From an uncultured Alphaproteobacteria bacterium (GTDB lineage Bacteria; Pseudomonadota; Alphaproteobacteria; Rs-D84): DNA of 64,000 bases. The stretch spans positions 22,633 to 86,632 of the forward strand of contig CALXML010000002.1 in NCBI GenBank assembly GCA_944389465.1, read 5' to 3'. Under the pieces are notes generated by a model. That model made no database searches and was not told where the DNA came from. It saw only the letters and a program-made list of their open reading frames with translations. Below are positions 3,417-44,687 of this stretch, piece by piece; the stretch's first letter is position 1; each line of letters opens with the position of its first letter. The position numbers were made by a program, and so were the translations under genes.

Positions 3417-3830
3417 TTATAATGATACAGTCTGAATTACATTCATATCTTTTTGACAATACATTATAGGCAGTTTTACTTTATTATTTCTGTCATAACA
3501 TATTGTCATATCGCCGTCTTTCATTTCAACCAAGTGTACGGGCTTTGGCATTTGTGCCAGACAATAAGAATAAGATACAACCTGTTTTTCCAGAATATCA
3601 CATAAACGTTCACTCTCTTCATATTCACCGGAGACTTCAACTTGATTCCCACATTGGTCTATGGCAGTAAATGGTGCTGATTTCTGTATCACCCGTTTTG
3701 GGGTATTAACACATACTGGAACTTCTGAACCGTTAAAGTTTTCCAAAGAATAATTGTTTAGTATAACATAATTTTTTGCACAGCCACATAACAAGAAAGC
3801 GATACCGACATAGCAAATATATTTTTTCAT
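3417..3830 (-). CDS. hypothetical lipoprotein
   Basis: MKKYICYVGIAFLLCGCAKN signal peptide with lipobox-like LCGC. No family recognised. Confidence 0.55.
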   Translation of the reverse strand: MKKYICYVGIAFLLCGCAKNYVILNNYSLENFNGSEVPVCVNTPKRVIQKSAPFTAIDQCGNQVEVSGEYEESERLCDILEKQVVSYSYCLAQMPKPVHLVEMKDGDMTICYDRNNKVKLPIMYCQKDMNVIQTVSL

Positions 3831-3877: not shown

Positions 3878-3953
3878 TGGTGCCGGATGTCGGACTTGAA
3901 CCAACGACCCTCTGATTACAAATCAGATGCTCTACCAGCTGAGCTAATCCGGC
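3878..3953 (-). tRNA. tRNA-Thr (anticodon UGU)
   Basis: GCCGGATTAGCTCAGCTGGTAGAGCATCTGATTTGTAATCAGAGGGTCGTTGGTTCAAGTCCGACATCCGGCACCA. Cloverleaf folds by hand, anticodon loop TTTGTAA, encoded CCA. Confidence 0.95.
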
Positions 3954-10099: not shown

Positions 10100-10403
10100 C
10101 GCGACACAGGTGAACAGCCAGCGGCATCGTCAGGTGCGAACAGCGAACAAAACCGGTGGGTTGACTACGCAGTGCCGTGCGACAGCACGAAACCTGTCGG
10201 TAAAACAGTTTAGGATGGGTGGCAGAGCGGTCGATTGCGACGGTCTTGCATACGAGTCAGCAAGGCAAGTGCAACGCAGCCGAGCGCGAACGAGTGGTGA
10301 GCAGCACCGTCAGGTGCGAACAGCGAACAAAACCGTAGGTTTGAAAGACCGTCGGTGAAAAAGTTTAGGATGGGTGGCAGAGCGGTCGATTGCGACGGTC
10401 TTG
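10100..10403 (+). repeat. tandem duplication (period ~155-175 nt) of a GC-rich leader plus the 5' half of tRNA-Ser
   Basis: The block CGTCAGGTGCGAACAGCGAACAAAACCG...GTCGGT.AAA.AGTTTAGGATGGGTGGCAGAGCGGTCGATTGCGACGGTCTTG occurs twice. Copy A carries an extra ~22-nt hairpin insert. Confidence 0.85.
10213..10248 (+). pseudogene. orphan 5' half of tRNA-Ser (acceptor 5' strand, D arm and anticodon stem up to anticodon position 35)
   Basis: 36/36 nt identical to 10368-10403. Identity stops inside the anticodon loop (CTTG|). No matching 3' half follows. Confidence 0.85.
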
Positions 10404-10457
10404 AAAACCGTTGTGGGGGCAACTCCACCGGGGGTTCGAATCCCTCCCCATCCGCCA
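10368..10457 (+). tRNA. tRNA-Ser (anticodon UGA)
   Basis: GGATGGGTGGCAGAGCGGTCGATTGCGACGGTCTTGAAAACCGTTGTGGGGGCAACTCCACCGGGGGTTCGAATCCCTCCCCATCCGCCA. Long variable arm, loop CTTGAAA, encoded CCA. Confidence 0.95.
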
Positions 10458-10987: not shown

Positions 10988-11054
10988 TTGATTTTATTCA
11001 GATGTGTTTAATCAGTTGATTTCAGCATTTCTTTATGTAAAACTGGGAAAGAAT

Positions 11055-11271
11055 CCAATGGGAATTGGGTTCGGGGCTGTCGTAAGCTCGGATTGTGCGG
11101 TTCAACTGCACCGTAATATTTGTATTTCGGACGGTTGTTTCGTTAAAAATATTCTCCCGACTGCATGTCGGGGAGCTGTGCGCTATACAATAGGGGCAAC
11201 CCAAAGGCGACAGAATCAATCACAATCTGATTTACGAACTCCCCGACCGTCAAATTCCTTTGGCGGTTTTT
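11055..11271 (+). promoter_or_regulatory. structured leader RNA with intrinsic terminator, copy 1 of 3 (unassigned family)
   Basis: Hairpin P0 CCAAT-GGGA-ATTGG. P1 GTCGGGGAG (11167-75) pairs with CTCCCCGAC (11239-47) and encloses P2 CTGT/ACAG, P2b GGG-GCAA-CCC and P3 AATCA/TGATT. Terminator ACCGTCA..TGGCGGT plus T run. The same plan occurs at 38729-38960 and 37251-37475(-). Confidence 0.75.
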
Positions 11272-11288
11272 AATTTGCTTAAAAAAAT

Positions 11289-14059
11289 ATGGGGTTTGGC
11301 ATGTCACAGAATACTTTGTCTTGGGAATGCAGAAAATTATTAAAATCAAAATTGTTTAACCAGAAATATTATCTGCAACATTATCCTGATGTTTTGGCGG
11401 ATAATATAAATCCAGCAGAACATTATTTAACCGTCGGTTGGACCAAGGGGTATAACCCATCACAAAAATTTAATACAAATGTATATTTGATGTTAAACCC
11501 AGATGTTAAGCAGGCGGGAATGAATCCTTTGCTGCATTATGAATTATTTGGCCGTCGCGAGAGGCGCGTTATAAATGATGCGCGTATGTCATTAATACTG
11601 GATTCAGGATTTTTTGATGTTGATTATTATATCGCACATCACCCAGATTTGGCCACAGGTTCTGGGTTTAATCCGGTGCTGCATTATTTGACAACGGGAT
11701 ACCAGCATGGCGATAACCCATCTGCAAAATTTGATAATGATGCATATTTAAGTATTTATCCAGATATATTCAGGGGCGGTATGAATCCGCTGTTACATTA
11801 TTTAATGCATGGTCAGGCCGAGGGTCGTTTTGCACCCCCAGTGACGGATATTTCACTGCCGGTGGTTGAATCAGGAACAATATTATTATTATCCCATGAA
11901 TTATCTTTAACGGGTGCACCAATTGCATTATTGAATACCGCACGTGCATTACAGCGACATAAAAAGAAATGCCTGATATTATCCCCCGTGGGTGGCAAAT
12001 TGGAACAAGAGTGCAAAAAATATGGCGTGCAATGTCTGGTTTATCCAAAATTGTTGATTCATTTAAGCCGGCAAGACGCACAAACACAACGTTTCTTTAA
12101 ACAATTTGATACAGTCTTGTTAAATACAATTGTAATGGCAAAATACGCCAGATTTATAAAACCATTGGTCCGGCGGGTTGTCCTGTGGGTGCACGAGGGC
12201 GCATTTGGATACGAAAACGAAACCAGAAACAGCAATTTAAAATCCGATTTTTCATATGTGGATACAATTTATTCAGTGGGGAATTATCTAAATCTTTTAC
12301 AGATAAATATTCAGGCAAATGTTCACAAATTCTGTTATATGGCATAGATGAGATAAAAATCCCCGCCGCACAGAAACGCAGCAATAAATTAGTTTTTGGT
12401 ATTTTTGGCACATGTGATACCAGAAAGGCCCAAGATAAATTTATCCAAGCAGTCAAAAAAATACCACAGAATATACGCGATAATTGCGAATTTAATATTG
12501 TTGGAAAATTACAAGACAATAAATACTGCAAAGTTTTAAAAAAGTTGGCGATTAATACACCTGTACACTTTCTGGGGGAATTAAGTCACCCAGAAACATT
12601 GCGTGAAATGGCACGCACAGATGTGATTTGCTGTACATCACTGGATGACCCAATGCCCATTGTTTGTACCGAGGCAATGATGCTGCACAAGCCTGTAATT
12701 TGTTCTGATAAAACCGGCACGGCCGCATTTATCCAAGATGGAAAAAACAGTTTTTTATACAAAACAGATACAGATAATTTGGCAGATATTATGATACGCG
12801 TATATAAACAACGTTCAGATTTGCATCGCATTGGTAACCGATGGAATGCAGTGTATCAAAAAAATTTCACCCCAAAAATTTTTGAACAAAATATTTTATC
12901 AGTGCTGTTCCGTGAAAAATGCACGATTGTAATGAATAATATGGAATCCAAGGATGTCCCATATTATCAGATGATGTCAGAAAAGTTTCAGACTCATATA
13001 GGTAATAATACTGGAAACATTTTAATTCCAACATATGGGGCACGCAATTTGGATTATGACTTTGAGTATTTGGCACCGTTTGACGTGAAAAATGACAGTG
13101 ATTCATATATTATATTTGCCGCCAATGTGTTAAGAAATAATGTGCAATTGAACTATGAAAAATGGTTTGAATTTCTGGGGCGTTGTAAAAAGCCGATAAA
13201 CATAATGGGATTGGGGGCACAAACAACACTGGAAGAAATGAATCCACGTAAATATGCGAACGGTTTATCATCTGAAATGGTGCGTTGGATACAAATGATT
13301 GCCGACAGATGTAATGTTGTTGGTGTGCGTGGCGAATTTACAGCAGATGTTTTAAAAAGTTTAGGTATAAAAAATGTAGATGCCGTTGGATGTCCAACTT
13401 ATTTTGTAAATGGATATGCGCAACCACAAATAATAAAGAAAAATTTGTCTGAACTGCGTAATGTTGTGTTTCACACTTGTTGGGAACCATACAGTGATTG
13501 GCACGTACAATGGAACAGGGCAGTGCTGGATAATATGTTACAATTTTCAAATCCTGCATTTGTGATACAGTCTGAATTTAAATTTTTGCCTTATTTGATT
13601 GCGAATACAGACCAATTGCAATCTTTGATGGCACTGCAAAATTCAGATATCAGTGCATCTGTTGACGCAATATGCCGGCATTTCGGACTGGATGAATATG
13701 ATGTTGTTACAAATGATAAAATCAGACATTTGTTTCATATATTTTCAGATATGAACAAATGGGCCGAATTTATCAAATCATATGATGTCGCATTTGGTTT
13801 CCGTATTCATGGAAATATTATAGCCTTAAAAAATGGTGTGCCCGCAATTGACATAGCCACAGATTCACGCGTTTATGAAATGTGCGAATTATTCAAAATA
13901 CCATATGTGCGGGTAAATCAGTTTGACAGTACAGAACTGAATTTTAATAAAATTTATGAACAGGCCGATTTTTCAGAAATGAATAAACAATATCCTGTGT
14001 TGTTACAGAACTTTATAAACTTTTTGGATAAAAATAATATCAAACATTTATATAACTGA
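11289..14059 (+). pseudogene. multidomain polysaccharide biosynthesis protein (N-terminal YPDV/NPLLHY repeats, GT4 glycosyltransferase, pyruvyl-transferase-like domain), frameshifted
   Basis: ORFs 11289-12347 and 12185-14059 continue one another (..DTIYSVG | ELSKSFTDKYSGK..) if one G is added to the GGGG run at 12278-12281. The C-terminal GCPTYF and FRIHGNIIALKNGVPAI resemble PS_pyruv_trans. Confidence 0.7.
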
Positions 14060-22492: not shown

Positions 22493-24541
22493 TTATTGTA
22501 AAACTGTTGAATTTTCCGTATTTTGATTTGCTGCGATTTCAGCATCACATTTCGGACAAAATTCGTGCCGCCCCGGTAAATATCCGTGTTTCGGACAGAT
22601 AGAGAATGTCGGCGTCAGTGTCATGTACGGAATTTTATAATTTTCAAAAATAGTACGTACAATCTTTTCAGCCGCCGCACCACTGGAAACAGGTTCGCCC
22701 ATATACAGGTGTAACATTGTGCCACCCGTGTATTTACGTTGTAATTCCTCTTGATGTTCCAGTGCGACGAATGGGTCGTCTGTATAATTCACCGGCAATT
22801 GGGTTGAATTTGTATAATATGGTGCGTCATGCGTACCGGCCGTAATAATATCTGGGAAATTCTTTACGTCTGTTTTGGCAAAGCGATAAGAACAACCCTC
22901 GGCTGGGGTGGCCTCCAGATTATACAGGTTTCCAGTTTGTTCCTGAAACGTGGCCAGATTTTCACGAATAAAGTCCATCAAATCCAGAACCAATTTCTTG
23001 CCCATTGGGGTTGCAATATTTTCCTTGTCATTGGTAAAGTTACGCACCATTTCATTCGCGCCATTTACACCAATTGTTGAAAAGTGATGATTCCAATTGC
23101 CCAAATAGCGACGGGTAAACGGATACAAACCACGTTCCATATTTTTGGTGATTATGCGACGCTTGATTTCCAATGCATCACGTGCCAAATCCAACAGGCG
23201 TTTCAGTTCACGGAACAAACCTTCGCGGTCGCCCTTGTGCGTGTATCCCAAACGGGACAGGTTAATTGTAACAACGCCAATAGAACCCGTTTTTTCCGCA
23301 GAACCAAACAATCCACCACCACGCTTTAACAATTCGCGTACATCCAAACGCAGACGGCAACACATTGAACGCACATCTGTTGGATTCAAATCAGAATTTA
23401 AGAAGTTCTGGAAATTAGGAATACCGTATTTTGCCGCCAAATCAAACAAAGGCTTTACATTCGGGTGTTCCCATGGGAAATCCTTGGTAATATTATATGT
23501 TGGTATTGGGAACGTGAATGGACGACCCATGGCGTCACCTTCGGTCATAACCTCTATGAACGCCTTGTTAATCATATCCATTTCTGGTTGCAGGTCACCA
23601 TATGTGAAATCAGCCTGTTTTTTACCAATAAAAGGACGCTGATTCTTTAAATCTTCTGGACAGGTCCAATCAAATGTAAAGTTAATAAATGGTGTTTGTG
23701 TTCCCCAACGACACGGCACAGCACAATTGAACACCAATGTCTGCATAGAATTTTTCACGTCTGCATATGACATATTGTCAACCCTGACATATGGGGCCAA
23801 ATACGTATCCACAGATGAAAAAGCCTGTGCCCCAGCAAATTCATTTTGCAACGTGCCCAAGAAGTTCACCATATGTGAAACCGCGGTTGCCATATGTTTT
23901 GCCGGTTCACACTGCAGATATCCGGGGACACCATTAAAGCCCTCGTACAATAATTCGCGCAATGACCACCCCGCACAATATCCGGTCAGCCACCCCAAAT
24001 CATGAATATGAATAGATGCGTTTTTGTGTGCCTCGGCAATTTCGCGCGGGTACAGATTTAACCAGTATTCCGCAGTAACGCGTTCAGACGTGCGCAAAAT
24101 TAATCCACCAATGGAATATCCAACATTGGCATTTTCCTTTATTCGCCAATTAGAACCGCCAACGTATCCCTCTATTACCTCTACGGCGTCAACATATGAA
24201 TCGCGGATTTCAGTACGCTTTTGACGATATATAATATAAGATTCCGCCGTTTTATACGCATGTGCATCCATCAGCGATTCAATTACGGCCTCTTGCACAT
24301 CTTCTACGGTTGGGTTTTTGTCAGTAAACTTTAATTCCAACTTGTTCAATGCAGATTGTGTAATGTTTGCGATTTGTTCATCTGAAATTTCATGTGTAAC
24401 GGCAACAGCCTTTTTAACAGCATCAAAAATCTTTTTTGCATCAAATGGTACAGATTCGCCGGAACGCTTTTGAACAACTTTCAGTCGTGTGTTAAGTGTC
24501 GGAATAATCTGAATTTTATTATCGTTTTCTGGCGTAGGCAT
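22493..24541 (-). CDS. nrdD: anaerobic (class III) ribonucleoside-triphosphate reductase, large part lacking the glycyl-radical tail
   Basis: N-terminal ATP-cone (VVKRSGESVPFDAKKI..), NRDD core, C-terminal Zn ribbon ..CPKHGYLPGRHEFCPKCD, then a TAA stop. Confidence 0.92.
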   Translation of the reverse strand: MPTPENDNKIQIIPTLNTRLKVVQKRSGESVPFDAKKIFDAVKKAVAVTHEISDEQIANITQSALNKLELKFTDKNPTVEDVQEAVIESLMDAHAYKTAESYIIYRQKRTEIRDSYVDAVEVIEGYVGGSNWRIKENANVGYSIGGLILRTSERVTAEYWLNLYPREIAEAHKNASIHIHDLGWLTGYCAGWSLRELLYEGFNGVPGYLQCEPAKHMATAVSHMVNFLGTLQNEFAGAQAFSSVDTYLAPYVRVDNMSYADVKNSMQTLVFNCAVPCRWGTQTPFINFTFDWTCPEDLKNQRPFIGKKQADFTYGDLQPEMDMINKAFIEVMTEGDAMGRPFTFPIPTYNITKDFPWEHPNVKPLFDLAAKYGIPNFQNFLNSDLNPTDVRSMCCRLRLDVRELLKRGGGLFGSAEKTGSIGVVTINLSRLGYTHKGDREGLFRELKRLLDLARDALEIKRRIITKNMERGLYPFTRRYLGNWNHHFSTIGVNGANEMVRNFTNDKENIATPMGKKLVLDLMDFIRENLATFQEQTGNLYNLEATPAEGCSYRFAKTDVKNFPDIITAGTHDAPYYTNSTQLPVNYTDDPFVALEHQEELQRKYTGGTMLHLYMGEPVSSGAAAEKIVRTIFENYKIPYMTLTPTFSICPKHGYLPGRHEFCPKCDAEIAANQNTENSTVLQ

Positions 24542-36614: not shown

Positions 36615-37222
36615 TCAGTTACTGTAATAACAATTTGCAGTATATGTATAATTGCCCGTGGAATCAGAACCTGTCCGACCAGCCGGTAAATAGCAATTGG
36701 TTATGGCCGTACTGCCCGCGGACGACGTGCCCCCATTTGGACACCCGATGTTCCGTTTGTGGTACTGCCGTAATATCCCGCCGCACAGCGATAACTGTAC
36801 GTTGTTTTGCATGTGGTGCTGTCCGAACATGAACGTGTTGCCAGTTGTTGGTATCCTGTGCCCGCGGCCGACCAAGATGTGTCACTTTTGCAATTTGAAC
36901 TGGTACAGGTTAATGCACACGTTTTGTATTGCAATGTGTTTGTTCCACTGCCGCAATTGACAGTGGTTGTTTTGGTCAGCATGGTATACCCGCTGGGGCA
37001 CAATATGCATGTTGTGACGCCAACCAATTCGCTTTCGCCACCAACACATGTTGCCGATGCTCTACCTGAACAATTTTGGGCCAAATTAATGACGCCCGCA
37101 TCATCCGCCGTGCATGCCATGGCGCGACATATAGTAGCACCAGATAAGGCATTTGCTGATATCGGTATGCCCCAGCATCCAATCGCCAAAATTGACGGGA
37201 TTAAATATGATGATTTTTTCAT
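36615..37222 (-). pseudogene. secreted Cys-rich protein with GCC2_GCC3/ephrin-receptor-like repeats, frameshifted
   Basis: Signal peptide MKKSSYLIPSILAIGCWGIPISANA. ORFs 36701-37267 and 36615-36875 join as ..CAAGYYGSTTNGTSG|CPNGGTSSAGSTAITNCYLPAG.. if one nt is added near the CCC run at 36744-36746. The 608-nt span is not a multiple of 3. Confidence 0.65.
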
Positions 37223-37250: not shown

Positions 37251-37475
37251 AAACAAAAAACCACCAAAACCTTGGTGGTCGGGAGTTGGAAAAATCATAG
37301 AAGTTAATGATCCGCTGGGTTTTGGCAAATGCCTGTTGTATAACCAGCACATCCCGACCCAATAAAAGTCAGGAAATGTACGTACATTGACGCACATATA
37401 AAATAACGACACGGACAACATTTCCGCACCGAACTTCTAGGGGATTTTCCAAGTCCCAAAACCAACAATCATTGG
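37251..37475 (-). promoter_or_regulatory. structured leader RNA with intrinsic terminator, copy 3 of 3 (most divergent)
   Basis: Minus strand: P0 CCAA-TGATTG-TTGG. P1 GTCGGGA (37350-58) pairs with TCCCGAC (37278-85). P2 GCTGG/CCAGC, conserved TTATACAACAGG, P2b GGC-ATTT-GCC, P3 ATCA/TGAT. Terminator CCACCAAGGTTTTGGTGG plus T6. Start codon 29 nt downstream. Confidence 0.75.
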
Positions 37476-37594
37476 TTTCGTTTGCCGGTATAGCCGGATA
37501 ATACAGGAAAAACAAGCCATAAAACATTTTACATTTTTTATAAAAAACTGCTTGCATTTATTCCAAGAACAATATAATATATGCTTTGCTCGTT

Positions 37595-37672
37595 GGGGTT
37601 GTAGCTCAGCTGGTTTAGAGCGTCTGCCTGTCACGCAGAAGGTCGCGGGTTCGAGCCCCGTCAATCCCGCCA
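37595..37672 (+). tRNA. tRNA-Asp (anticodon GUC)
   Basis: GGGGTTGTAGCTCAGCTGGTTTAGAGCGTCTGCCTGTCACGCAGAAGGTCGCGGGTTCGAGCCCCGTCAATCCCGCCA. Loop CTGTCAC, encoded CCA. Confidence 0.95.
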
Positions 37673-38378: not shown

Positions 38379-38454
38379 GGCCCCATCGTCTAGAGGCCTA
38401 GGACACCGCCCTTTCAAGGCGAGAACACCAGTTCGAATCTGGTTGGGGCTGCCA
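38379..38454 (+). tRNA. tRNA-Glu (anticodon UUC)
   Basis: GGCCCCATCGTCTAGAGGCCTAGGACACCGCCCTTTCAAGGCGAGAACACCAGTTCGAATCTGGTTGGGGCTGCCA. Close to E. coli tRNA-Glu. G1-U72 wobble. Confidence 0.93.
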
Positions 38455-38465
38455 AGATAAAAAAA

Positions 38466-38487
38466 CGACCCTTGCGGTCGTTTTTTT
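38466..38487 (+). terminator. intrinsic terminator after tRNA-Glu
   Basis: CGACCCTTGCGGTCG hairpin followed by TTTTTTT. Confidence 0.8.
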
Positions 38488-38627: not shown

Positions 38628-38670
38628 GCTGCCAAGATAAAAAAACTACCCTTGCGGTCGTTTTTTATTG
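38628..38670 (+). repeat. duplicate of the tRNA-Glu 3' end plus terminator
   Basis: GCTGCCAAGATAAAAAAACTACCCTTGCGGTCGTTTTTT is near-identical to 38448-38490. It is preceded by a degenerate T-arm-like GGGAATTTACAATCTGG. Confidence 0.8.
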
Positions 38671-38687: not shown

Positions 38688-38717
38688 TTGATTTTAATAC
38701 ATATCTGTGTTTATAAT
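38688..38717 (+). promoter_or_regulatory. sigma70-like promoter for leader RNA copy 2
   Basis: TTGATT (38688-93), 18 nt, TATAAT (38712-17). Confidence 0.6.
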
Positions 38718-38728
38718 ATTTTTTAAAT

Positions 38729-38960
38729 CAGTGGGGACACTGGTTTGGGGCTGTCGAAAGCCTTGTATATCCGGTGCAAAACATAGCGGTTCATCGTTAT
38801 CCAGACATTCCTATGGTTTTGCGTCGTTATTTATCCCTGACTTAATACGAAGTCGGGGAGCTGTTTGTTATACAACAGGGCTTGCCCGAAAGCAACAGAA
38901 TCATTGATATACTGATTTTCGAACTCCCCGACCGCCGTGTCTTTACTGGGCGGTCTTTTT
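38729..38960 (+). promoter_or_regulatory. structured leader RNA with intrinsic terminator, copy 2 of 3
   Basis: P0 CAGTG-GGGA-CACTG. P1 GTCGGGGAG (38852-60) pairs with CTCCCCGAC (38924-32). P2 CTGT/ACAG, GTTATACAACAGG, P2b GGG-CTTG-CCC, P3 AATCA/TGATT. Terminator GACCGCC..GGCGGTC plus T5. Start codon 18 nt downstream. Confidence 0.75.
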
Positions 38961-38977
38961 GTATACAGGGGTACACC

Positions 38978-41251
38978 ATGAAATTATTCAGAAAATCAGT
39001 TAAACAAGACAGATGTGCACAATCTGCAGAAATCAATCCAGATATTCAAATAATTCAAAATTCCAAATATTTTGATAAAAAATGGTATCTTAAAACATAT
39101 CCTGATGTTGCGCGTGCCCATTGTAATCCCGCCGAACACTATTTAACATTTGGGTGGCATGAAAACAGACGCCCATCGCACAATTTTAATGGTCAAAATT
39201 ATTGGAATATATATCCAGAATCCAAAAATATGAACCCGTTATTGCACTATGAAAAAATAGGCAAGCAATCTGGTGCGCGTATTGATGGAAATTTCAAATT
39301 TACGAATTTTGAATTAATCAAAAAGACTGATAAAAATATAGTCTTTCCAAAATTTTCTGATATCAAGGTCAGTATAATTATACCTGTATACAATAATTTT
39401 TATTATACCAAGTTATGTTTGCAATCTATATTAAACAACACGCACGGTATTTCGTACGAGATTATAATTGCAGATGATAATTCAACCGATGAAACAAAAA
39501 ACATCTTGCGGCACATAAAAAACATTCGGGTTGTTCGGAACAGTGAAAATCTGCGTTTTCTGAAGAATTGTAATAATGCGGCCACATATGCCCGTGGGGA
39601 ATACCTGTGCTTTTTAAATAATGATACCCAAGTTCAACGGGATTGGCTGAAATTCTTGGTTGATGCCATAGAGAAAGATTCATCCATTGGCTTGGTTGGG
39701 TCAAAACTGATTTATCCTGATGGCACATTACAAGAGGCCGGCGGTATTATATACACTGATGCATCGGGGTGTAATTATGGTCGCAACGATGACCCAGACT
39801 GTATTTGGTATAATTATGTCAAAGAAACAGATTATATTTCTGGGGCATCTATTTTATTACGCAATAAAACGTGGAAAAAACTGGGCGGGTTTGATGAAAC
39901 TTTTGCCCCCGCGTATTACGAAGATACAGATTTAGCATTTCAAATCAGATATAAACTGGGACAGAAAGTAATGTACATTCCGCGGTCTGTGGTTGTTCAT
40001 TTTGAAGGAAAATCAAACGGCACAGATACGACCAGCGGCCAAAAAAAATATCAGGTAATAAACCGGCAAAAATTTTTCAGGAAATGGAAAAAAGAACTGT
40101 ATAAATACCATTGTCGTCCGACAAACAATAATTTTCTGGCGCGCGATAATGCCGTGTCAAAACAATCTGTTTTGGTAATTGATTGGAAAATTTTGTCTTT
40201 TACCAAAGATACAGGTTCACGTGCAACGTGGCAATATATGAAATTATTTCAAAGCCACGGTTTAAATGTAAAATTGTACCCGCACGATTGGTACATAGAA
40301 GGCGATTATTTACAGCAACATTTGGATAATGGCTTTGAAGTGATACATCAAAATTTTGCGGAATATATTAAAAATTTTGGCTCGCAGTTTGACTATGTTT
40401 ACCTGAATCGTCCGAATATTGCGCCAAAGTATATAGACTTGTTACGTAAATACACGCACGCAAAAATAATATATCAGTGTCACGATTTGCATTATCTGCG
40501 CCAATACAGAAACAGAATGTTAACCGATGAAACGACGGCGGTTGAAAAATTGCAGTCTGAAAAAGATATGGAATTTAATTTATTTTCAAAAATGGATGTA
40601 ACCTGTACATTTTCTTTTGACGAAGTGCGTGAAATTCAAAATACAGACGAAACAATAAACGCACGTCAAATACCGTTATACATATTAAATCCAGACGATA
40701 TGGCGCAATATACATACAGTGCGCGCAAACGCAAAAACATTATGTTTGTTGCCGGATTTCAACATACCCCGAACATAGACGGTGCAATTTGGTTTGTAAA
40801 AAATGTATTTCCAAAAATCAAGCAACAGTACAAAGATATAAAATTGTATTTGGTTGGCTCTAATCCGACCGATGAAATATTACAATTGGCATCAAAAGAC
40901 GTCATTGTAACAGGCTTTGTAACAGATGCTGAATTGGATAAATTTTATTCTGAAATCAGACTGGTTGTTGTGCCATTACGAACCGGTGCCGGCGTCAAAG
41001 GCAAAATAATTGAATCTGTGTTTCACAAAGTGCCCGTAATCACAACTGATATAGGCATAGAAGGCATAGATAATTCGTCCAAGCAAATAATTGTGAAAAA
41101 TTCTGCATCAGAATTTGCAAAATCTGTATGCGATTTATACACAAATTATACGGAACTGGATACAAAATCAAAAAATTCAGCACAATTTATTAAGAAATAT
41201 TTTTCTGAAAGTGCCGCAGTAAACGCACTGCGTGATTATATGAAATTATAA
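38978..41251 (+). CDS. bifunctional glycosyltransferase (N-terminal YPDV/NPLLHY repeat, GT2 domain, GT4 domain)
   Basis: Internal ATG 38978. VSIIIPVYNNFYYT..YEIIIADDNSTDET (GT2 DxD region). C-terminal ..VVPLRTGAGVKGKIIESVFHKVPVITTDIG (GT1/GT4 EX7E-type). Confidence 0.8.
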   Translation: MKLFRKSVKQDRCAQSAEINPDIQIIQNSKYFDKKWYLKTYPDVARAHCNPAEHYLTFGWHENRRPSHNFNGQNYWNIYPESKNMNPLLHYEKIGKQSGARIDGNFKFTNFELIKKTDKNIVFPKFSDIKVSIIIPVYNNFYYTKLCLQSILNNTHGISYEIIIADDNSTDETKNILRHIKNIRVVRNSENLRFLKNCNNAATYARGEYLCFLNNDTQVQRDWLKFLVDAIEKDSSIGLVGSKLIYPDGTLQEAGGIIYTDASGCNYGRNDDPDCIWYNYVKETDYISGASILLRNKTWKKLGGFDETFAPAYYEDTDLAFQIRYKLGQKVMYIPRSVVVHFEGKSNGTDTTSGQKKYQVINRQKFFRKWKKELYKYHCRPTNNNFLARDNAVSKQSVLVIDWKILSFTKDTGSRATWQYMKLFQSHGLNVKLYPHDWYIEGDYLQQHLDNGFEVIHQNFAEYIKNFGSQFDYVYLNRPNIAPKYIDLLRKYTHAKIIYQCHDLHYLRQYRNRMLTDETTAVEKLQSEKDMEFNLFSKMDVTCTFSFDEVREIQNTDETINARQIPLYILNPDDMAQYTYSARKRKNIMFVAGFQHTPNIDGAIWFVKNVFPKIKQQYKDIKLYLVGSNPTDEILQLASKDVIVTGFVTDAELDKFYSEIRLVVVPLRTGAGVKGKIIESVFHKVPVITTDIGIEGIDNSSKQIIVKNSASEFAKSVCDLYTNYTELDTKSKNSAQFIKKYFSESAAVNALRDYMKL

Positions 41252-41261
41252 GGAGTATCAA

Positions 41262-42188
41262 ATGTTTTTTACAAAAAGCAAAGAAACATACGCGCCGATT
41301 GCCATGTTTGTGTATAACAGAATTGACCACCCATTACAGGTCATAGACAGTTTATTGCAAAACACTGAATCCAAATACACAGATTTATACATATTTTCTG
41401 ATGGCCCAAGGTATCTGAACGATATAACACCCATATCGTCATTAAGAAAAAAATTACATAAAGTTCGTGGCTTTAAATCTGTTACTGTATTTGAACGCAA
41501 AACAAATTACGGTTTGGCAATAAATTTAATAGACGGCATTTCCAGAGTATTGGAAACAAATGATTCCGTCATAGTAATAGAAGACGATATCGTTGTAAAT
41601 ACTAATTTTTTGGCATTTATGAACCAATGTTTACAGAAATATAAAAATAATCATCAGATATTTACTGTTCAGGCAACAACTGGCGACCCAGATAATGTTT
41701 CAGATGTCATAACACGTGCCCAGCCTGATTGCTGGGGGTGGGCAATATGGAAAGACAGATGGGATTTGTTTGAAAGAAATGTTGCCGGCGCATTTATGGA
41801 TATAAACGCAAATGATATGGAATTACGCAGAAAATTAAATAATAACAACAGCATAAATATATCGTGGCAAATTGACGCAAATTTGCGAAATCAACGCAGT
41901 ACATGGGGAATATACCTGAATTATACGTCAATAAAGTATAATAAATTAAATATCTTTCCGCGGTATCAAATCATAAAAAACATTGGTCAGGATGGCACAG
42001 GTGTTCATGGCTGTGTTGAAAACACTGCGGATATAAATCCGCGGTGGAATACTAAAAATTTCATTCTGCCAAATAATCCCCCATTTCAAAACATTGATGG
42101 AATGCCAAATAACGATGTTTTGAAATATAACGAAAATTTGCGTGCAGAATTAAACACAGAAAAATACCTGTCACTGATAAATAAATAG
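41262..42188 (+). CDS. glycosyltransferase (GNT-I-like/GT-A fold)
   Basis: APIAMFVYNRIDHPLQVIDSL..., YIFSDGP and VIVIEDDIVV motifs. AAGGAG SD. Same operon as the GT2-GT4 gene. Confidence 0.6.
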   Translation: MFFTKSKETYAPIAMFVYNRIDHPLQVIDSLLQNTESKYTDLYIFSDGPRYLNDITPISSLRKKLHKVRGFKSVTVFERKTNYGLAINLIDGISRVLETNDSVIVIEDDIVVNTNFLAFMNQCLQKYKNNHQIFTVQATTGDPDNVSDVITRAQPDCWGWAIWKDRWDLFERNVAGAFMDINANDMELRRKLNNNNSINISWQIDANLRNQRSTWGIYLNYTSIKYNKLNIFPRYQIIKNIGQDGTGVHGCVENTADINPRWNTKNFILPNNPPFQNIDGMPNNDVLKYNENLRAELNTEKYLSLINK

Positions 42189-42573: not shown

Positions 42574-44346
42574 CTATATTAATTTTGCATCGTGCAGTAA
42601 TTGTTCCAAATATGTTCCACGAACGTGTTTCATTCCCTGTTTTTCCAACAGTTTTATTACCCATGGAACATCCAGTTCGCGTAATTTTTTACAGTCATTC
42701 AGATAATATACACTTTGCAACAGCATCCGTATGTCAAAGCATGAATCAAATACTTCGGGTACACCACGGTCAATATTTAACAGGGTATACACGGCCTGCA
42801 TCGCGGTGCGTACGGAATATTCTGTTGTAAACACTGTGTCGCGTTCTGTTTCTGCATAATTACCAATAAATGCCAAATTCACTGAACCGCGTGGCACAAC
42901 CAATGGCCTGTCGCCCAGTGCACGTGGCATAAAATATGTTGTTATGTATGGCATATGACACGGAACAGTACTGGCGCGATTATTTGCAATATCGTCAATT
43001 TGCGATACTGGCACACCAATATGGTACAGCCATTCTGCACACAATTCTGCACCGGTACAGTCTGCTATTTTCTTTTTCACATAATTTCCATCAGTATCAG
43101 ACAGCAACCCATATGTCCAAACGACAATTTCATTTGGCTTTTGTGCACGAAAATGTGGTTGGCGTGAAATACTGAACCCGTACAGCCAATTAGAATCTTT
43201 TATCGTAACAGGACCACTGCTGACAATTGAACCACTGTGCGGGTCTTTTTTACATATTTTCTTTATATACGGAACAACAGTGTCATCAAACAAAGTGATT
43301 GTCGCAGATATAACCCAATTGGCATCTGGGATGTTTTCACAGAATTTTTCAGGTTTGCCAAATTCGTCACACTGTGCGGCCAAATTTTTCCATAATTGCC
43401 ATGATGCACCCAGTTCGTGTTTCTTGTCTGCCGGCGTATTATTGTCACCGTATGTGGTGCTTTCAGTTATTGAACCATTTGTGACAAAAACCAAATCATC
43501 AGGTGTTAATTTAATTTCACGTTTGCGACCTGACTTGGTTAATTCCAGTTTCTTTGCGACTTTTTTATCAGGTTTGCAATTAACAACCACATTTGTCACG
43601 ATTGTATCAAAGTGAAATTTTACACCACGCGATTCCAGCCATTTTACCAGTGGGGTTATCAGTGATTCATATTGATTGTATTTGGTAAATTTTAATGCTG
43701 ACATATCCGCCAGTTTTCCAACATGGTGGATAAATCGCAAAATATAGCGACGCATTTCCATTGCGCTGGACCACCGTTCAAACGCAAACATTGTCGCCCA
43801 ATATAACCAAAAGTTAGATTCAAAAAATTCATCGCCAAAAACTTGGTCTATTTGAACATCTTGTAATTTTTCTTCTGGCGTCAGTGCCAAATCAATCAAT
43901 TCGCGGATTGCCTTTGGTGTCAGTGTTAATTTGCCATCGTCACGCATTCTGTGGCCACGCCGTTCAATTGCGCGACAATGCGAAAAACTGGGGTCTGATT
44001 TATTCAGCCAATAAAATTCATCCAAAACGGAAACATCTGAATTTTCCAACGACGGAATGGAACGGAATAAATCCCACAGGGTTTCAAAGTGCGCCTCCAT
44101 TTCGCGGCCACCACGAATGATAAAGCCCCGCTGTGGATTTTTTATGCCATCCATACTGCCGCCGGCGATGGGCAATTCTTCAAAAACATGGATTTTATTG
44201 CCACGCATTTTGCCGTCACGAATCATAAATACGGCTGCCGCCAAACCAGCCAGTCCGCCACCAATAATATATGCAGATTTCTTTGCTGCATCTGCTGGGG
44301 GCATTGGTGCGGCAAAGGCCTCGTAATTACCATTGCTGTAATACAT
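42574..44346 (-). CDS. ohyA: oleate hydratase (MCRA family, FAD-dependent)
   Basis: MYYSNGNYEAF..., AYIIGGGLAGLAAAVFMIRDG FAD motif, HFETLWDLFRSIPSLE, 590 aa. Confidence 0.9.
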   Translation of the reverse strand: MYYSNGNYEAFAAPMPPADAAKKSAYIIGGGLAGLAAAVFMIRDGKMRGNKIHVFEELPIAGGSMDGIKNPQRGFIIRGGREMEAHFETLWDLFRSIPSLENSDVSVLDEFYWLNKSDPSFSHCRAIERRGHRMRDDGKLTLTPKAIRELIDLALTPEEKLQDVQIDQVFGDEFFESNFWLYWATMFAFERWSSAMEMRRYILRFIHHVGKLADMSALKFTKYNQYESLITPLVKWLESRGVKFHFDTIVTNVVVNCKPDKKVAKKLELTKSGRKREIKLTPDDLVFVTNGSITESTTYGDNNTPADKKHELGASWQLWKNLAAQCDEFGKPEKFCENIPDANWVISATITLFDDTVVPYIKKICKKDPHSGSIVSSGPVTIKDSNWLYGFSISRQPHFRAQKPNEIVVWTYGLLSDTDGNYVKKKIADCTGAELCAEWLYHIGVPVSQIDDIANNRASTVPCHMPYITTYFMPRALGDRPLVVPRGSVNLAFIGNYAETERDTVFTTEYSVRTAMQAVYTLLNIDRGVPEVFDSCFDIRMLLQSVYYLNDCKKLRELDVPWVIKLLEKQGMKHVRGTYLEQLLHDAKLI

Positions 44347-44602: not shown

Positions 44603-44687
44603 TGGTGGGCGTACAGAGATTTGAACTCTGACGGGTTTCCCCACTGGAACCTAAATCCAGCGCGTCTACCAGTTTCGCCATACGCCC
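44603..44687 (-). tRNA. tRNA-Leu (anticodon UAG)
   Basis: GGGCGTATGGCGAAACTGGTAGACGCGCTGGATTTAGGTTCCAGTGGGGAAACCCGTCAGAGTTCAAATCTCTGTACGCCCACCA. Long variable arm, loop TTTAGGT, encoded CCA. Confidence 0.93.

Follow-up and report, generated by a model that had tools for sequence, protein, structure and literature searches.

A leader RNA family upstream of cell-surface genes in Candidatus Enterousia has an sRNA-Xcc1-like core and is a candidate transcription attenuator

Are the cell-surface genes of uncultured gut Alphaproteobacteria preceded by an RNA switch, and if so, of which kind? The question is raised by a stretch of 64,000 nucleotides (hereafter the window: positions 22,633 to 86,632 of contig CALXML010000002.1, GenBank assembly GCA_944389465.1) from an uncultured bacterium of the order Rs-D84. 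An earlier note on this DNA had described three non-coding stretches of one architecture, each ending in a terminator directly before a cell-surface gene, and had read them as riboswitch or attenuator leaders of no known class. Enterousia, which belongs to Rs-D84, comprises gut organisms with genomes below about 1 Mb (PMC12306168). We report that the three stretches belong to a family of leader RNAs, found mainly in Candidatus Enterousia, in which two mutually exclusive helices compete next to a terminator. The core of the leader is, on comparison of sequence models, a diverged relative of sRNA-Xcc1 (RF02221). With moderate confidence, we propose that the leader is a cis-acting, signal-dependent transcription attenuator that would switch its mRNA on or off.

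The three copies aligned over their whole length with 72% mean column identity over about 240 nt (alignment A1). Their refined extents are 11050-11273(+) for copy 1, 38724-38960(+) for copy 2 and 37480-37252(-) for copy 3, giving a leader RNA of about 225 nt, and folding compared with dinucleotide shuffles yielded z-scores of -6.2, -4.3 and -5.9, respectively. A covariance model of the core, run on the window with filters off, retrieved copy 2 at 99.2 bits, copy 1 at 94.4 bits and copy 3 at 65.5 bits, the next match scoring 13.7 bits. An nhmmer profile built from 59 sequences matched the same three copies only, and neither search found a further or degenerate copy in the window. Coordinates, full-length alignment and folding z-scores all agree with the claim of three stretches sharing one architecture. 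The parts that had been listed were likewise recovered: a 5' hairpin (P0), GGTTYGGGG with a second hairpin, strands A, B and C, helix P2, the single-stranded UAUACAAYAGG, hairpin P2b with its tetraloop, P3 (AAUCA/UGAUU), and a GC hairpin with a T run that adjoins strand C and is soon followed by a start codon.

Homologues were collected by one exact-pattern scan (TATACAAYAGG-N6-CCNAANNCNA) of a species-representative genome collection. At least about 65 full homologues were present among the matches listed, nearly all of them in metagenome-assembled genomes (MAGs) named Candidatus Enterousia or "uncultured Alphaproteobacteria", and the hosts sampled were the guts of humans, ruminants, horse, mouse and chicken. 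Paralogous copies of different sub-types occur within single MAGs (at least four in JAFTPS01, at least three each in JAZLCH01 and JAZRSI01). The window (41% G+C) is 83-86% identical to two of the contigs, L125 and L138, with leaders and genes collinear; for the copy 2 leader and its operon, synteny with L138 comes with 82.6% identity. A contig labelled Bacteroides fragilis (L064, CAVGNU010000003.1) also carries a leader of typical Enterousia type that shares 85% identity with copy 2; this contig is probably mis-binned from an alphaproteobacterium. A loose scan of a viral collection for the Enterousia motif returned chance matches only.

Covariation was counted on an alignment of 59 sequences (A2, whose columns number the pairs given below), where RNAalifold predicted 50 pairs, 35 of them with compensatory changes. 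Two structures specified by hand were counted, both about 95% paired with covariation scores of 0.47-0.48. In one of them paired cells made up 95.4% of 3084, with a score of 0.469 against 0.178 in shuffles, and none of 500 shuffles reached the observed value; sliding the partners by one to three columns lowered the score to 0.06-0.08. Covariation, by which the earlier note had proposed to judge the family, thus has strong statistical support and shows the fold of the leader.

At the 5' end, P0 (11050-11073 in copy 1, 38724-38747 in copy 2, 37480-37458 in copy 3) is capped by a GNRA loop (GGGA, 11060-11063 in copy 1) and has changes on both sides in nine of its ten pairs, namely seven of the eight in the main helix and both inner pairs. 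The second hairpin, named P0b here (GGGCU/AGCUC, 11074-11089; 38748-38763; 37457-37442), was recovered in almost every copy; the fourth pair of its stem, which closes the hairpin in 4-bp forms, is C-G, A-U, U-A or G-C. There follows a variable middle region (11098-11152 in copy 1) of 34-90 nt across the family, folded into one or two variable hairpins, with a single hairpin in some clades. The TCGTTA that had been placed in this region is indeed there in copy 1 and is not universal in the family: it occurs twice in the main Enterousia clades and is absent where the middle region is one hairpin, so that we rejected it as a defining motif or protein site. Strands A and B come next, then the P2/P2b arm (11176-11213), which holds the near-invariant unpaired UAUACAAUA (11184-11192), the hairpin P2b (GGG-GCAA-CCC, 11193-11202) and AAAG (11203-11206); the corresponding unpaired segment is UAUACAACA in copies 2 (38869-38877) and 3 (37342-37334). 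P3 (AAUCA/UGAU(U), 11214-11231) carries the loop AUCACAAUC (11219-11227; 38904-38912; 37307-37298) and is linked to strand C by J3/1 (UUACGAA, 11232-11238; 38917-38923; 37293-37287). P2, the 3-bp P2b, P3 and the terminator are also helices supported by covariation in the 59 sequences, and about 20 unpaired positions of the junction do not vary even between divergent clades. A leader peptide was rejected as a candidate on the grounds that alignment gaps and covarying pairs are RNA-like and not coding, although no scan for open reading frames (ORFs) was made.

The P3 loop had been taken for a free, variable loop of 9-10 nt. It is not free: in every copy it is complementary to a strand of 7-8 nt located just after P0b. 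This long-range helix (PKb) pairs GAUUGUG (11091-11097) with CACAAUC in copy 1, GUAUAUC (38765-38771) with GAUAUAC in copy 2, and UAGAAGUU (37439-37432) with AACUUCUA in copy 3. In 53 of the 59 copies the complementarity is perfect over at least 7 nt, against 3% for mismatched partners, and all seven PKb pairs covary. A second long-range helix (PKa) joins the P0b loop to the linker after P3. In copy 1, UCGUA of the loop GUCGUA (11079-11084; 38753-38758 in copy 2) pairs with UACGA of J3/1, and the family shows the variants CGUAA/UUACG, CACAA/UUGUG, GCUAG/UUAGC, CUCAA/UUGAG, CAAAA/UUUUG and GAUAA/UUAUC. Columns 88-90 and 309-311, which belong to PKa, have changes on both sides in 28-32 of the 59 sequences. 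No pair of either helix lacks changes on both sides, and a single pair may take up to five standard types. The structural model of the earlier note, which lacked these links between the 5' domain and the junction, was therefore incomplete. The geometry would fit two classical H-type pseudoknots, with P0b stacked on PKa in one and, in the other, P3 stacked on PKb, which a 2-nt loop would cross.

Strand A (UCCCGACU, 11155-11162 in copy 1; 38835-38842; 37374-37367) and strand C (CUCCCCGAC, 11239-11247; 38924-38932; 37286-37278) had been proposed to compete for strand B (GUCGGGGAG, 11167-11175; 38852-38860; 37359-37351), and each of the two helices proved to have covarying pairs of its own. The B:C helix, which forms P1 with strand B as its 5' and strand C as its 3' strand, is paired in 97.9% of cells, and A:B in 94.2%. 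Four pairs covary in A:B, among them 219-229, which lies outside B:C (UA 26, UG 11, CG 10 and AU 4). In B:C, pairs 236-316, 237-315 and 238-314 covary, the last two being specific to this helix (GC 49 and UA 9 at 238-314), and column 236 covaries with both its partners. In one homologue (L049:3034-3276) the three strands have changed jointly, to CCCUGCG, CGCGGGG and CCCCGCG for A, B and C. As A:B and B:C are each supported by covarying pairs outside the other helix, both conformations are, as read from the alignment, under selection.

What would such an alternative act upon? A GACCGCC...GGCGGUY hairpin with a T-rich tail, typical of an intrinsic terminator, is found in 58 of the 59 copies (11245-11273 in copy 1, with arms GACCGUCAAA and UUUGGCGGUU followed by the U run; 38930-38960; 37280-37252). 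It shares the last three nucleotides of strand C (GAC), which form the three basal pairs of the terminator stem, nearest the U tract. In the clade of L049, L152 and L128 the whole RNA is kept and the terminator is replaced by a hairpin that buries the Shine-Dalgarno (SD) sequence and a GUG start codon; at its base this hairpin likewise includes the final 3 nt of strand C. Platforms that replace one another while connected to the same nucleotides are, as an argument from sequence, what is expected of a cis-regulatory switch. At the other end, nearly all 59 homologues have a sigma-70-like promoter (TTTACA or TTGAnn, about 17 nt, GATAnACT or TATAAT) that stops about 7 nt short of P0. Given this fixed distance, the leader is likely to be the 5' end of the transcript, with transcription presumably starting at P0. 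In copy 1, a -35 TTGATT (11016-11021) and a -10 TAAAAC (11038-11043) are separated by a 16-nt spacer (whole site 11016-11043(+), also ending about 7 nt before P0). The site of copy 2 (TTGATT, 18 nt, TATAAT; 38688-38717(+)) matches the consensus at 10 of 12 positions, and that of copy 3 (37487-37515(-)) has a -35 TTGTTT (37515-37510), 17 nt and a -10 TATACC (37492-37487), with TATACT at this position in the orthologue L125.

The genes that follow were then considered. Where the sequence extends far enough downstream, nearly all leaders (58 of 65 distinct copies) precede an ORF on the same strand with an SD, in 47 of these within 30 nt. In most copies SD and ORF come 8-25 nt past the T run, leaving no room for a second promoter. 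Copy 1 precedes a GT4_5 glycosyltransferase gene (11291-12347(+), SD GGGG at 11291-11294, ATG at 11301 or, in frame, at 11289), whose 3' end is overlapped by an ORF of 624 aa with GT1 and polysaccharide pyruvyl transferase domains (12185-14059). Copy 2 precedes a GT2 and GT1 fusion glycosyltransferase of 757 aa (38978-41251(+)), itself followed by a GT25/GT2-like gene (41262-42188), and copy 3 a secreted protein of 173 aa with a signal peptide, 14 Cys and no Pfam match (36701-37222(-)). Among 49 downstream products scanned, glycosyltransferases (GT2 in five genes, RgpF in three, GT1, GT8 and Stealth), outer-membrane proteins (OMP beta-barrel, Opacity and Surface_Ag_2 families) and TRL-like proteins were recognized. 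About 30 of the 49 have no Pfam match, and most of these carry signal peptides or lipoboxes and are rich in Cys; cytoplasmic proteins were few. This survey of Pfam families and signal peptides confirms that the downstream genes encode cell-surface functions. A role of strand C (CUCCCC) as an anti-SD was rejected: runs of at least four G precede 55% of leader genes against 36% of the genes in the window, and with G-rich SDs genome-wide such a role would not be specific.

From these observations we propose the following mechanism. The leader adopts a compact fold in which the GNRA-capped P0, P0b docked through PKa, PKb and the variable hairpins accompany a junction of the Xcc1 type (P1, P2/P2b and P3, with UAUACAAYA). 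During transcription A:B would form first, leaving strand C free to complete the terminator, and RNA polymerase would stop before the gene (OFF). When P1 closes the docked junction instead, the terminator would lose three base pairs next to its U tract and transcription would read through (ON); in the L049, L152 and L128 clade, formation of P1 would free the start codon. The choice of state would presumably be set by a signal that stabilizes the junction, whether a small ligand or a protein. That a specific partner, metabolite or protein, binds the RNA is suggested by some 20 unpaired nucleotides of the junction that never vary, by the GNRA cap and by the two pseudoknots. We infer both the polarity, with P1 as the ON state, and the existence and nature of this signal. 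The regulon would consist of secreted Cys-rich proteins, lipoproteins, outer-membrane proteins and polysaccharide glycosyltransferases.

Several points weigh against such a switch. P1 and the terminator overlap by 3 nt only, so the effect on termination could be small. Minimum-free-energy and RNAalifold folds favour A:B with a full terminator in all copies, and the ON state therefore needs a further input. The 5' GGG could pair with the CCC of strand C instead, these columns being invariant. Finally, the nearest relatives of the leader, the classical sRNA-Xcc1 loci described below, resemble antisense-type translation regulators and not ligand sensors.

As to known riboswitches, the leader may be compared with transcriptional ones that occur in many copies per genome ahead of surface and secretion genes, e.g. 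the c-di-GMP-I (GEMM) type. Like them, it lies in the 5' untranslated region, combines a GNRA-capped helix, pseudoknotted contacts and invariant junction nucleotides, has a P1 that competes with the platform, uses both terminators and SD-sequestering platforms within one family, and occurs in many copies per genome before related envelope genes. It differs by the overlap of just 3 nt between P1 and terminator and by the extra anti-P1 strand (A). A conserved, covarying structured domain is thus present in the 5' untranslated region, and so is an interchangeable expression platform that excludes the putative sensing domain, the strength of the coupling being uncertain from the small overlap. No riboswitch of Rfam matches the leaders in sequence or structure. 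Of the riboswitch or attenuator reading given earlier, the structured leader family and the competing helices stand; the sensing of a small molecule is an inference for which no ligand can be named, the gene context suggesting none. The leader had also been held not to be a JUMPstart/ops element, correctly: the ops element GGCGGTAGNNTG is absent from the leaders, where GGCGGU forms the 3' half of the terminator stem, covarying with the 5' half. With up to one mismatch, GGCGGTAGNNTG occurs in the window only at 44152(-), outside the leaders.

Is the leader then of no known class, as had been stated? At gathering score, Rfam matched nothing in the window but five tRNAs, and no RF02221 match reached that score in 18 further homologue loci, in line with the earlier assignment. 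A permissive cmscan search matched all three copies specifically to RF02221 over its full length (1-87) at 38.3, 34.9 and 32.0 bits (E 3e-5 to 4e-3), below the gathering threshold of 53 bits; among the results by which the earlier note could have been overturned, this comes closest. True members, at four plasmid or chromosome loci, score 69-73 bits. Reciprocally, the Enterousia core model (R1) matched 24 of 55 true Xcc1 loci over their full length at 25-44 bits (E to 1e-6). The two RNAs have the same three-way junction: P1, often with the same GUCGGGAG/CUCCCGAC, a P2 arm with unpaired (U)AUACAA(Y)A, a 3-bp P2b followed by (G)AA, P3, and a U-rich linker back to P1. The unpaired AUACAA and the GAA after the nested hairpin, by which RF02221 is known, are both there, and some true members share UAUACAACA. 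The P2b stem is flipped, GGG-N4-CCC in Enterousia and CCCGNAAGGG in Xcc1. The statement that the leader belongs to no known class thus has to be withdrawn for the B:C junction, a sub-threshold yet full-length and reciprocal relative of RF02221. Judged by these matches, the leader core is a diverged relative of sRNA-Xcc1, and the Enterousia leader an extended, rearranged branch of the same kind.

sRNA-Xcc1 has been described as an 88-nt, integron-encoded, trans-acting small RNA of Xanthomonas campestris that is widespread in prophages. The reported evidence consists of an 88-nt species on Northern blots, end-mapping and predicted targets (PMC2996969). We therefore looked at what surrounds it in a classical set of four plasmid or chromosome loci and 90 loci on viral contigs (L166-L249 among them), from which the docking sites given here were derived. 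In 67 of 94 loci (null 4.9%), the 45 nt before the next start codon contain a run of at least 6 nt perfectly complementary to the P3 loop, usually reaching into the SD, and the J3/1 linker has such a complement before the next start in 44 of 94 (null 6.5%). The same segments are complementary to a site about 70-100 nt upstream, the loop in 75 of 93 loci and the linker in 38 of 93 (null 6%). This upstream site consists of a hairpin with an anti-J3/1 loop, an anti-loop strand (starts 11-14 nt apart) and CGG, which is the layout of P0b, PKa and PKb in the Enterousia leader; in both families, P3 loop and J3/1 pair with an upstream hairpin loop plus strand. The genes that follow are of the antirepressor types AntA, KilA-N, Bro-N, P22_AR_N, ORF6N (as in APSE phages) and Rha, or symE in Xanthomonas integrons, and the motif occurs in 137 phage records, those of Stx phages among them, beside antB. 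With complementary sites on its flanks and antirepressor genes downstream, RF02221 appears to model just the core of a larger cis-encoded element, and the arrangement suggests that sRNA-Xcc1 is itself a cis-encoded regulator of the next gene. Given the same layout, each of the five tandem homologues reported about 385 nt apart in a genomic island of Xylella fastidiosa Temecula1 (1,313,466-1,315,082; PMC12189769) may be the leader of a small gene and not a free-standing small RNA.

These loci recall the c4 antisense RNA of the immI operon in phages P1 and P7 (RF01695), also known as the "c4-a1b1" motif of Weinberg et al. 2010 (PMC2864571). In both, a small structured RNA lies upstream of an antirepressor gene and has two segments complementary to sites upstream and at the ribosome-binding site. 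In the work of Citron and Schuster from 1990 and Biere et al. from 1992, the a' and b' segments of c4 are reported to have two sets of pairing partners, a1/b1 on the upstream side and a2/b2 at the icd/ant ribosome-binding site. On a rival reading, the Enterousia leader would be an antisense RNA in its terminated or processed form, or as a core, whose P3 loop and J3/1 pair with mRNA sites in cis or in trans and whose PKa and PKb 5' strands serve as a1/b1-type self-targets, with no signal-sensing switch. This account draws on the two-way relationship of the core to sRNA-Xcc1, on the complementarities and antirepressor genes of the classical loci, on the 88-nt species detected by Northern blot and on the early-codon sites described next; the leader does retain an a1/b1-like half in PKa and PKb. 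A second site, of the a2/b2 type, is missing family-wide from the Enterousia leaders: P3 loop and J3/1 showed no family-wide enrichment of complementarity to the downstream 70 nt or the translation start region (means 4.54 against 4.55 and 5.39 against 5.23), the 5' partner of the P3 loop gave no such signal at the translation start either, and sites at the SD or start are confined to copy 2 with its orthologue L138, copy 3 and L064. Nor does the window hold a second site with both complementarities, save for a chance-level look-alike of the copy 3 docking strand. Moreover, the output in Enterousia is an intrinsic terminator, as opposed to translational repression followed by Rho-dependent termination in c4, and an antisense mode leaves unexplained the A:B and B:C alternative, the terminator overlap and the swap of the terminator for an SD hairpin. 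Rfam C4 did not match around the three copies at E up to 10, nor in the classical Xcc1 loci at E up to 0.01. We consider an antisense mode unlikely. On comparison of the two families, the Enterousia leader appears to have kept the upstream docking site, lost the copy at the ribosome-binding site and used a terminator instead; unlike classical members, it has at its 3' end an intrinsic terminator that overlaps P1, its strand A is strongly conserved, and it precedes chromosomal surface genes of Rs-D84 instead of prophage antirepressor genes or symE.

The early-codon sites concern single genes. In copy 2, ACUGAUUUUC (38904-38920, spanning P3 loop end, 3' arm and J3/1) matches codons 5-9 of the glycosyltransferase gene (38991-39007) as a perfect complement; the equivalent match in L138 covers 14 nt, and in copy 3 codons 2-5 are matched over 9 nt (37287-37308 with 37200-37221). 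The family as a whole shows no enrichment of such complementarity, so these sites may reflect either additional control of the individual genes or coincidence in A/U-rich sequence. The look-alike of the copy 3 docking strand lies at 3726-3760(-), within the ORF 3417-3830(-): it reads TTGGAAAA, 12 nt and AGAAGTT, the docking strand itself being TTGGAAAA, 6 nt and TAGAAGTT, and it is probably a coincidence (estimated chance probability about 0.05-0.15).

A constitutive leader, i.e. a cassette of promoter and 5' untranslated region that stabilizes the mRNA or allows a fixed, leaky read-through without any response to a signal, would account for promoter and leader moving together as a unit, for the many terminators with interrupted U tracts (e.g. 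UCUAAUUUU), which are possibly just weak, and for the lack of a nameable ligand or factor. Two mutually exclusive helices both kept by compensatory changes, about 20 unpaired junction positions invariant across divergent clades and two distinct platforms tied to the same 3 nt of strand C make it hard to uphold without switching, and we judge it improbable. A mobile repeat resembling a miniature inverted-repeat transposable element, or a chance intergenic similarity, is effectively refuted despite the multiple copies per genome (three in 64 kb, up to four sampled per MAG), since orientation, promoter distance and start-codon distance are fixed in all copies (random orientation relative to genes being what the earlier note had expected of a repeat), no terminal inverted or direct repeats were found, paralogues differ by compensatory changes and not by random drift, and the window holds no degenerate or stray copy.

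Other features of the surroundings may be mentioned. The five tRNA genes of the window lie at 3881-3953(-), 10368-10454(+), 37595-37669(+), 38379-38451(+) and 44606-44687(-), and each leader copy is about 0.1-0.7 kb from one of them. A 39-nt direct repeat with 97% identity (38448-38486 and 38628-38666) was also observed, each unit being a bidirectional terminator-like hairpin (AAAAAAACGACC...GGTCGTTTTTT); the first begins at the 3' end of the tRNA gene 38379-38451 and the second lies just upstream of the copy 2 promoter.

Returning to the signal-dependent attenuator, its kinship with sRNA-Xcc1 bears on both families. The annotations of hundreds of phage and bacterial genomes present sRNA-Xcc1 as a trans-acting "virulence" small RNA; it seems mis-described, and the complementary sites on both of its flanks, including the ribosome-binding site of antirepressor genes, make its function directly testable. 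More speculatively, and as a possibility we rate as less likely than not, Enterousia leaders and classical sRNA-Xcc1 could form one widespread, so far unrecognized cis-regulatory class of about 200 nt, a three-way junction docked by two pseudoknot helices that senses a cellular signal, which prophages would use to gate antirepressor translation and the lysis-lysogeny decision and which Rs-D84 would have recruited as a master switch of its whole surface repertoire. With its unusually clean covariation, the Enterousia family is a riboswitch-like orphan open to study. Judging from the three copies in 64 kb and the up to four sampled per MAG, much of the surface repertoire of these bacteria (secreted proteins, lipoproteins, porins and surface-polysaccharide enzymes) may be under the control of a single RNA device, which, if true, would provide a host-associated organism with a compact means of surface switching.

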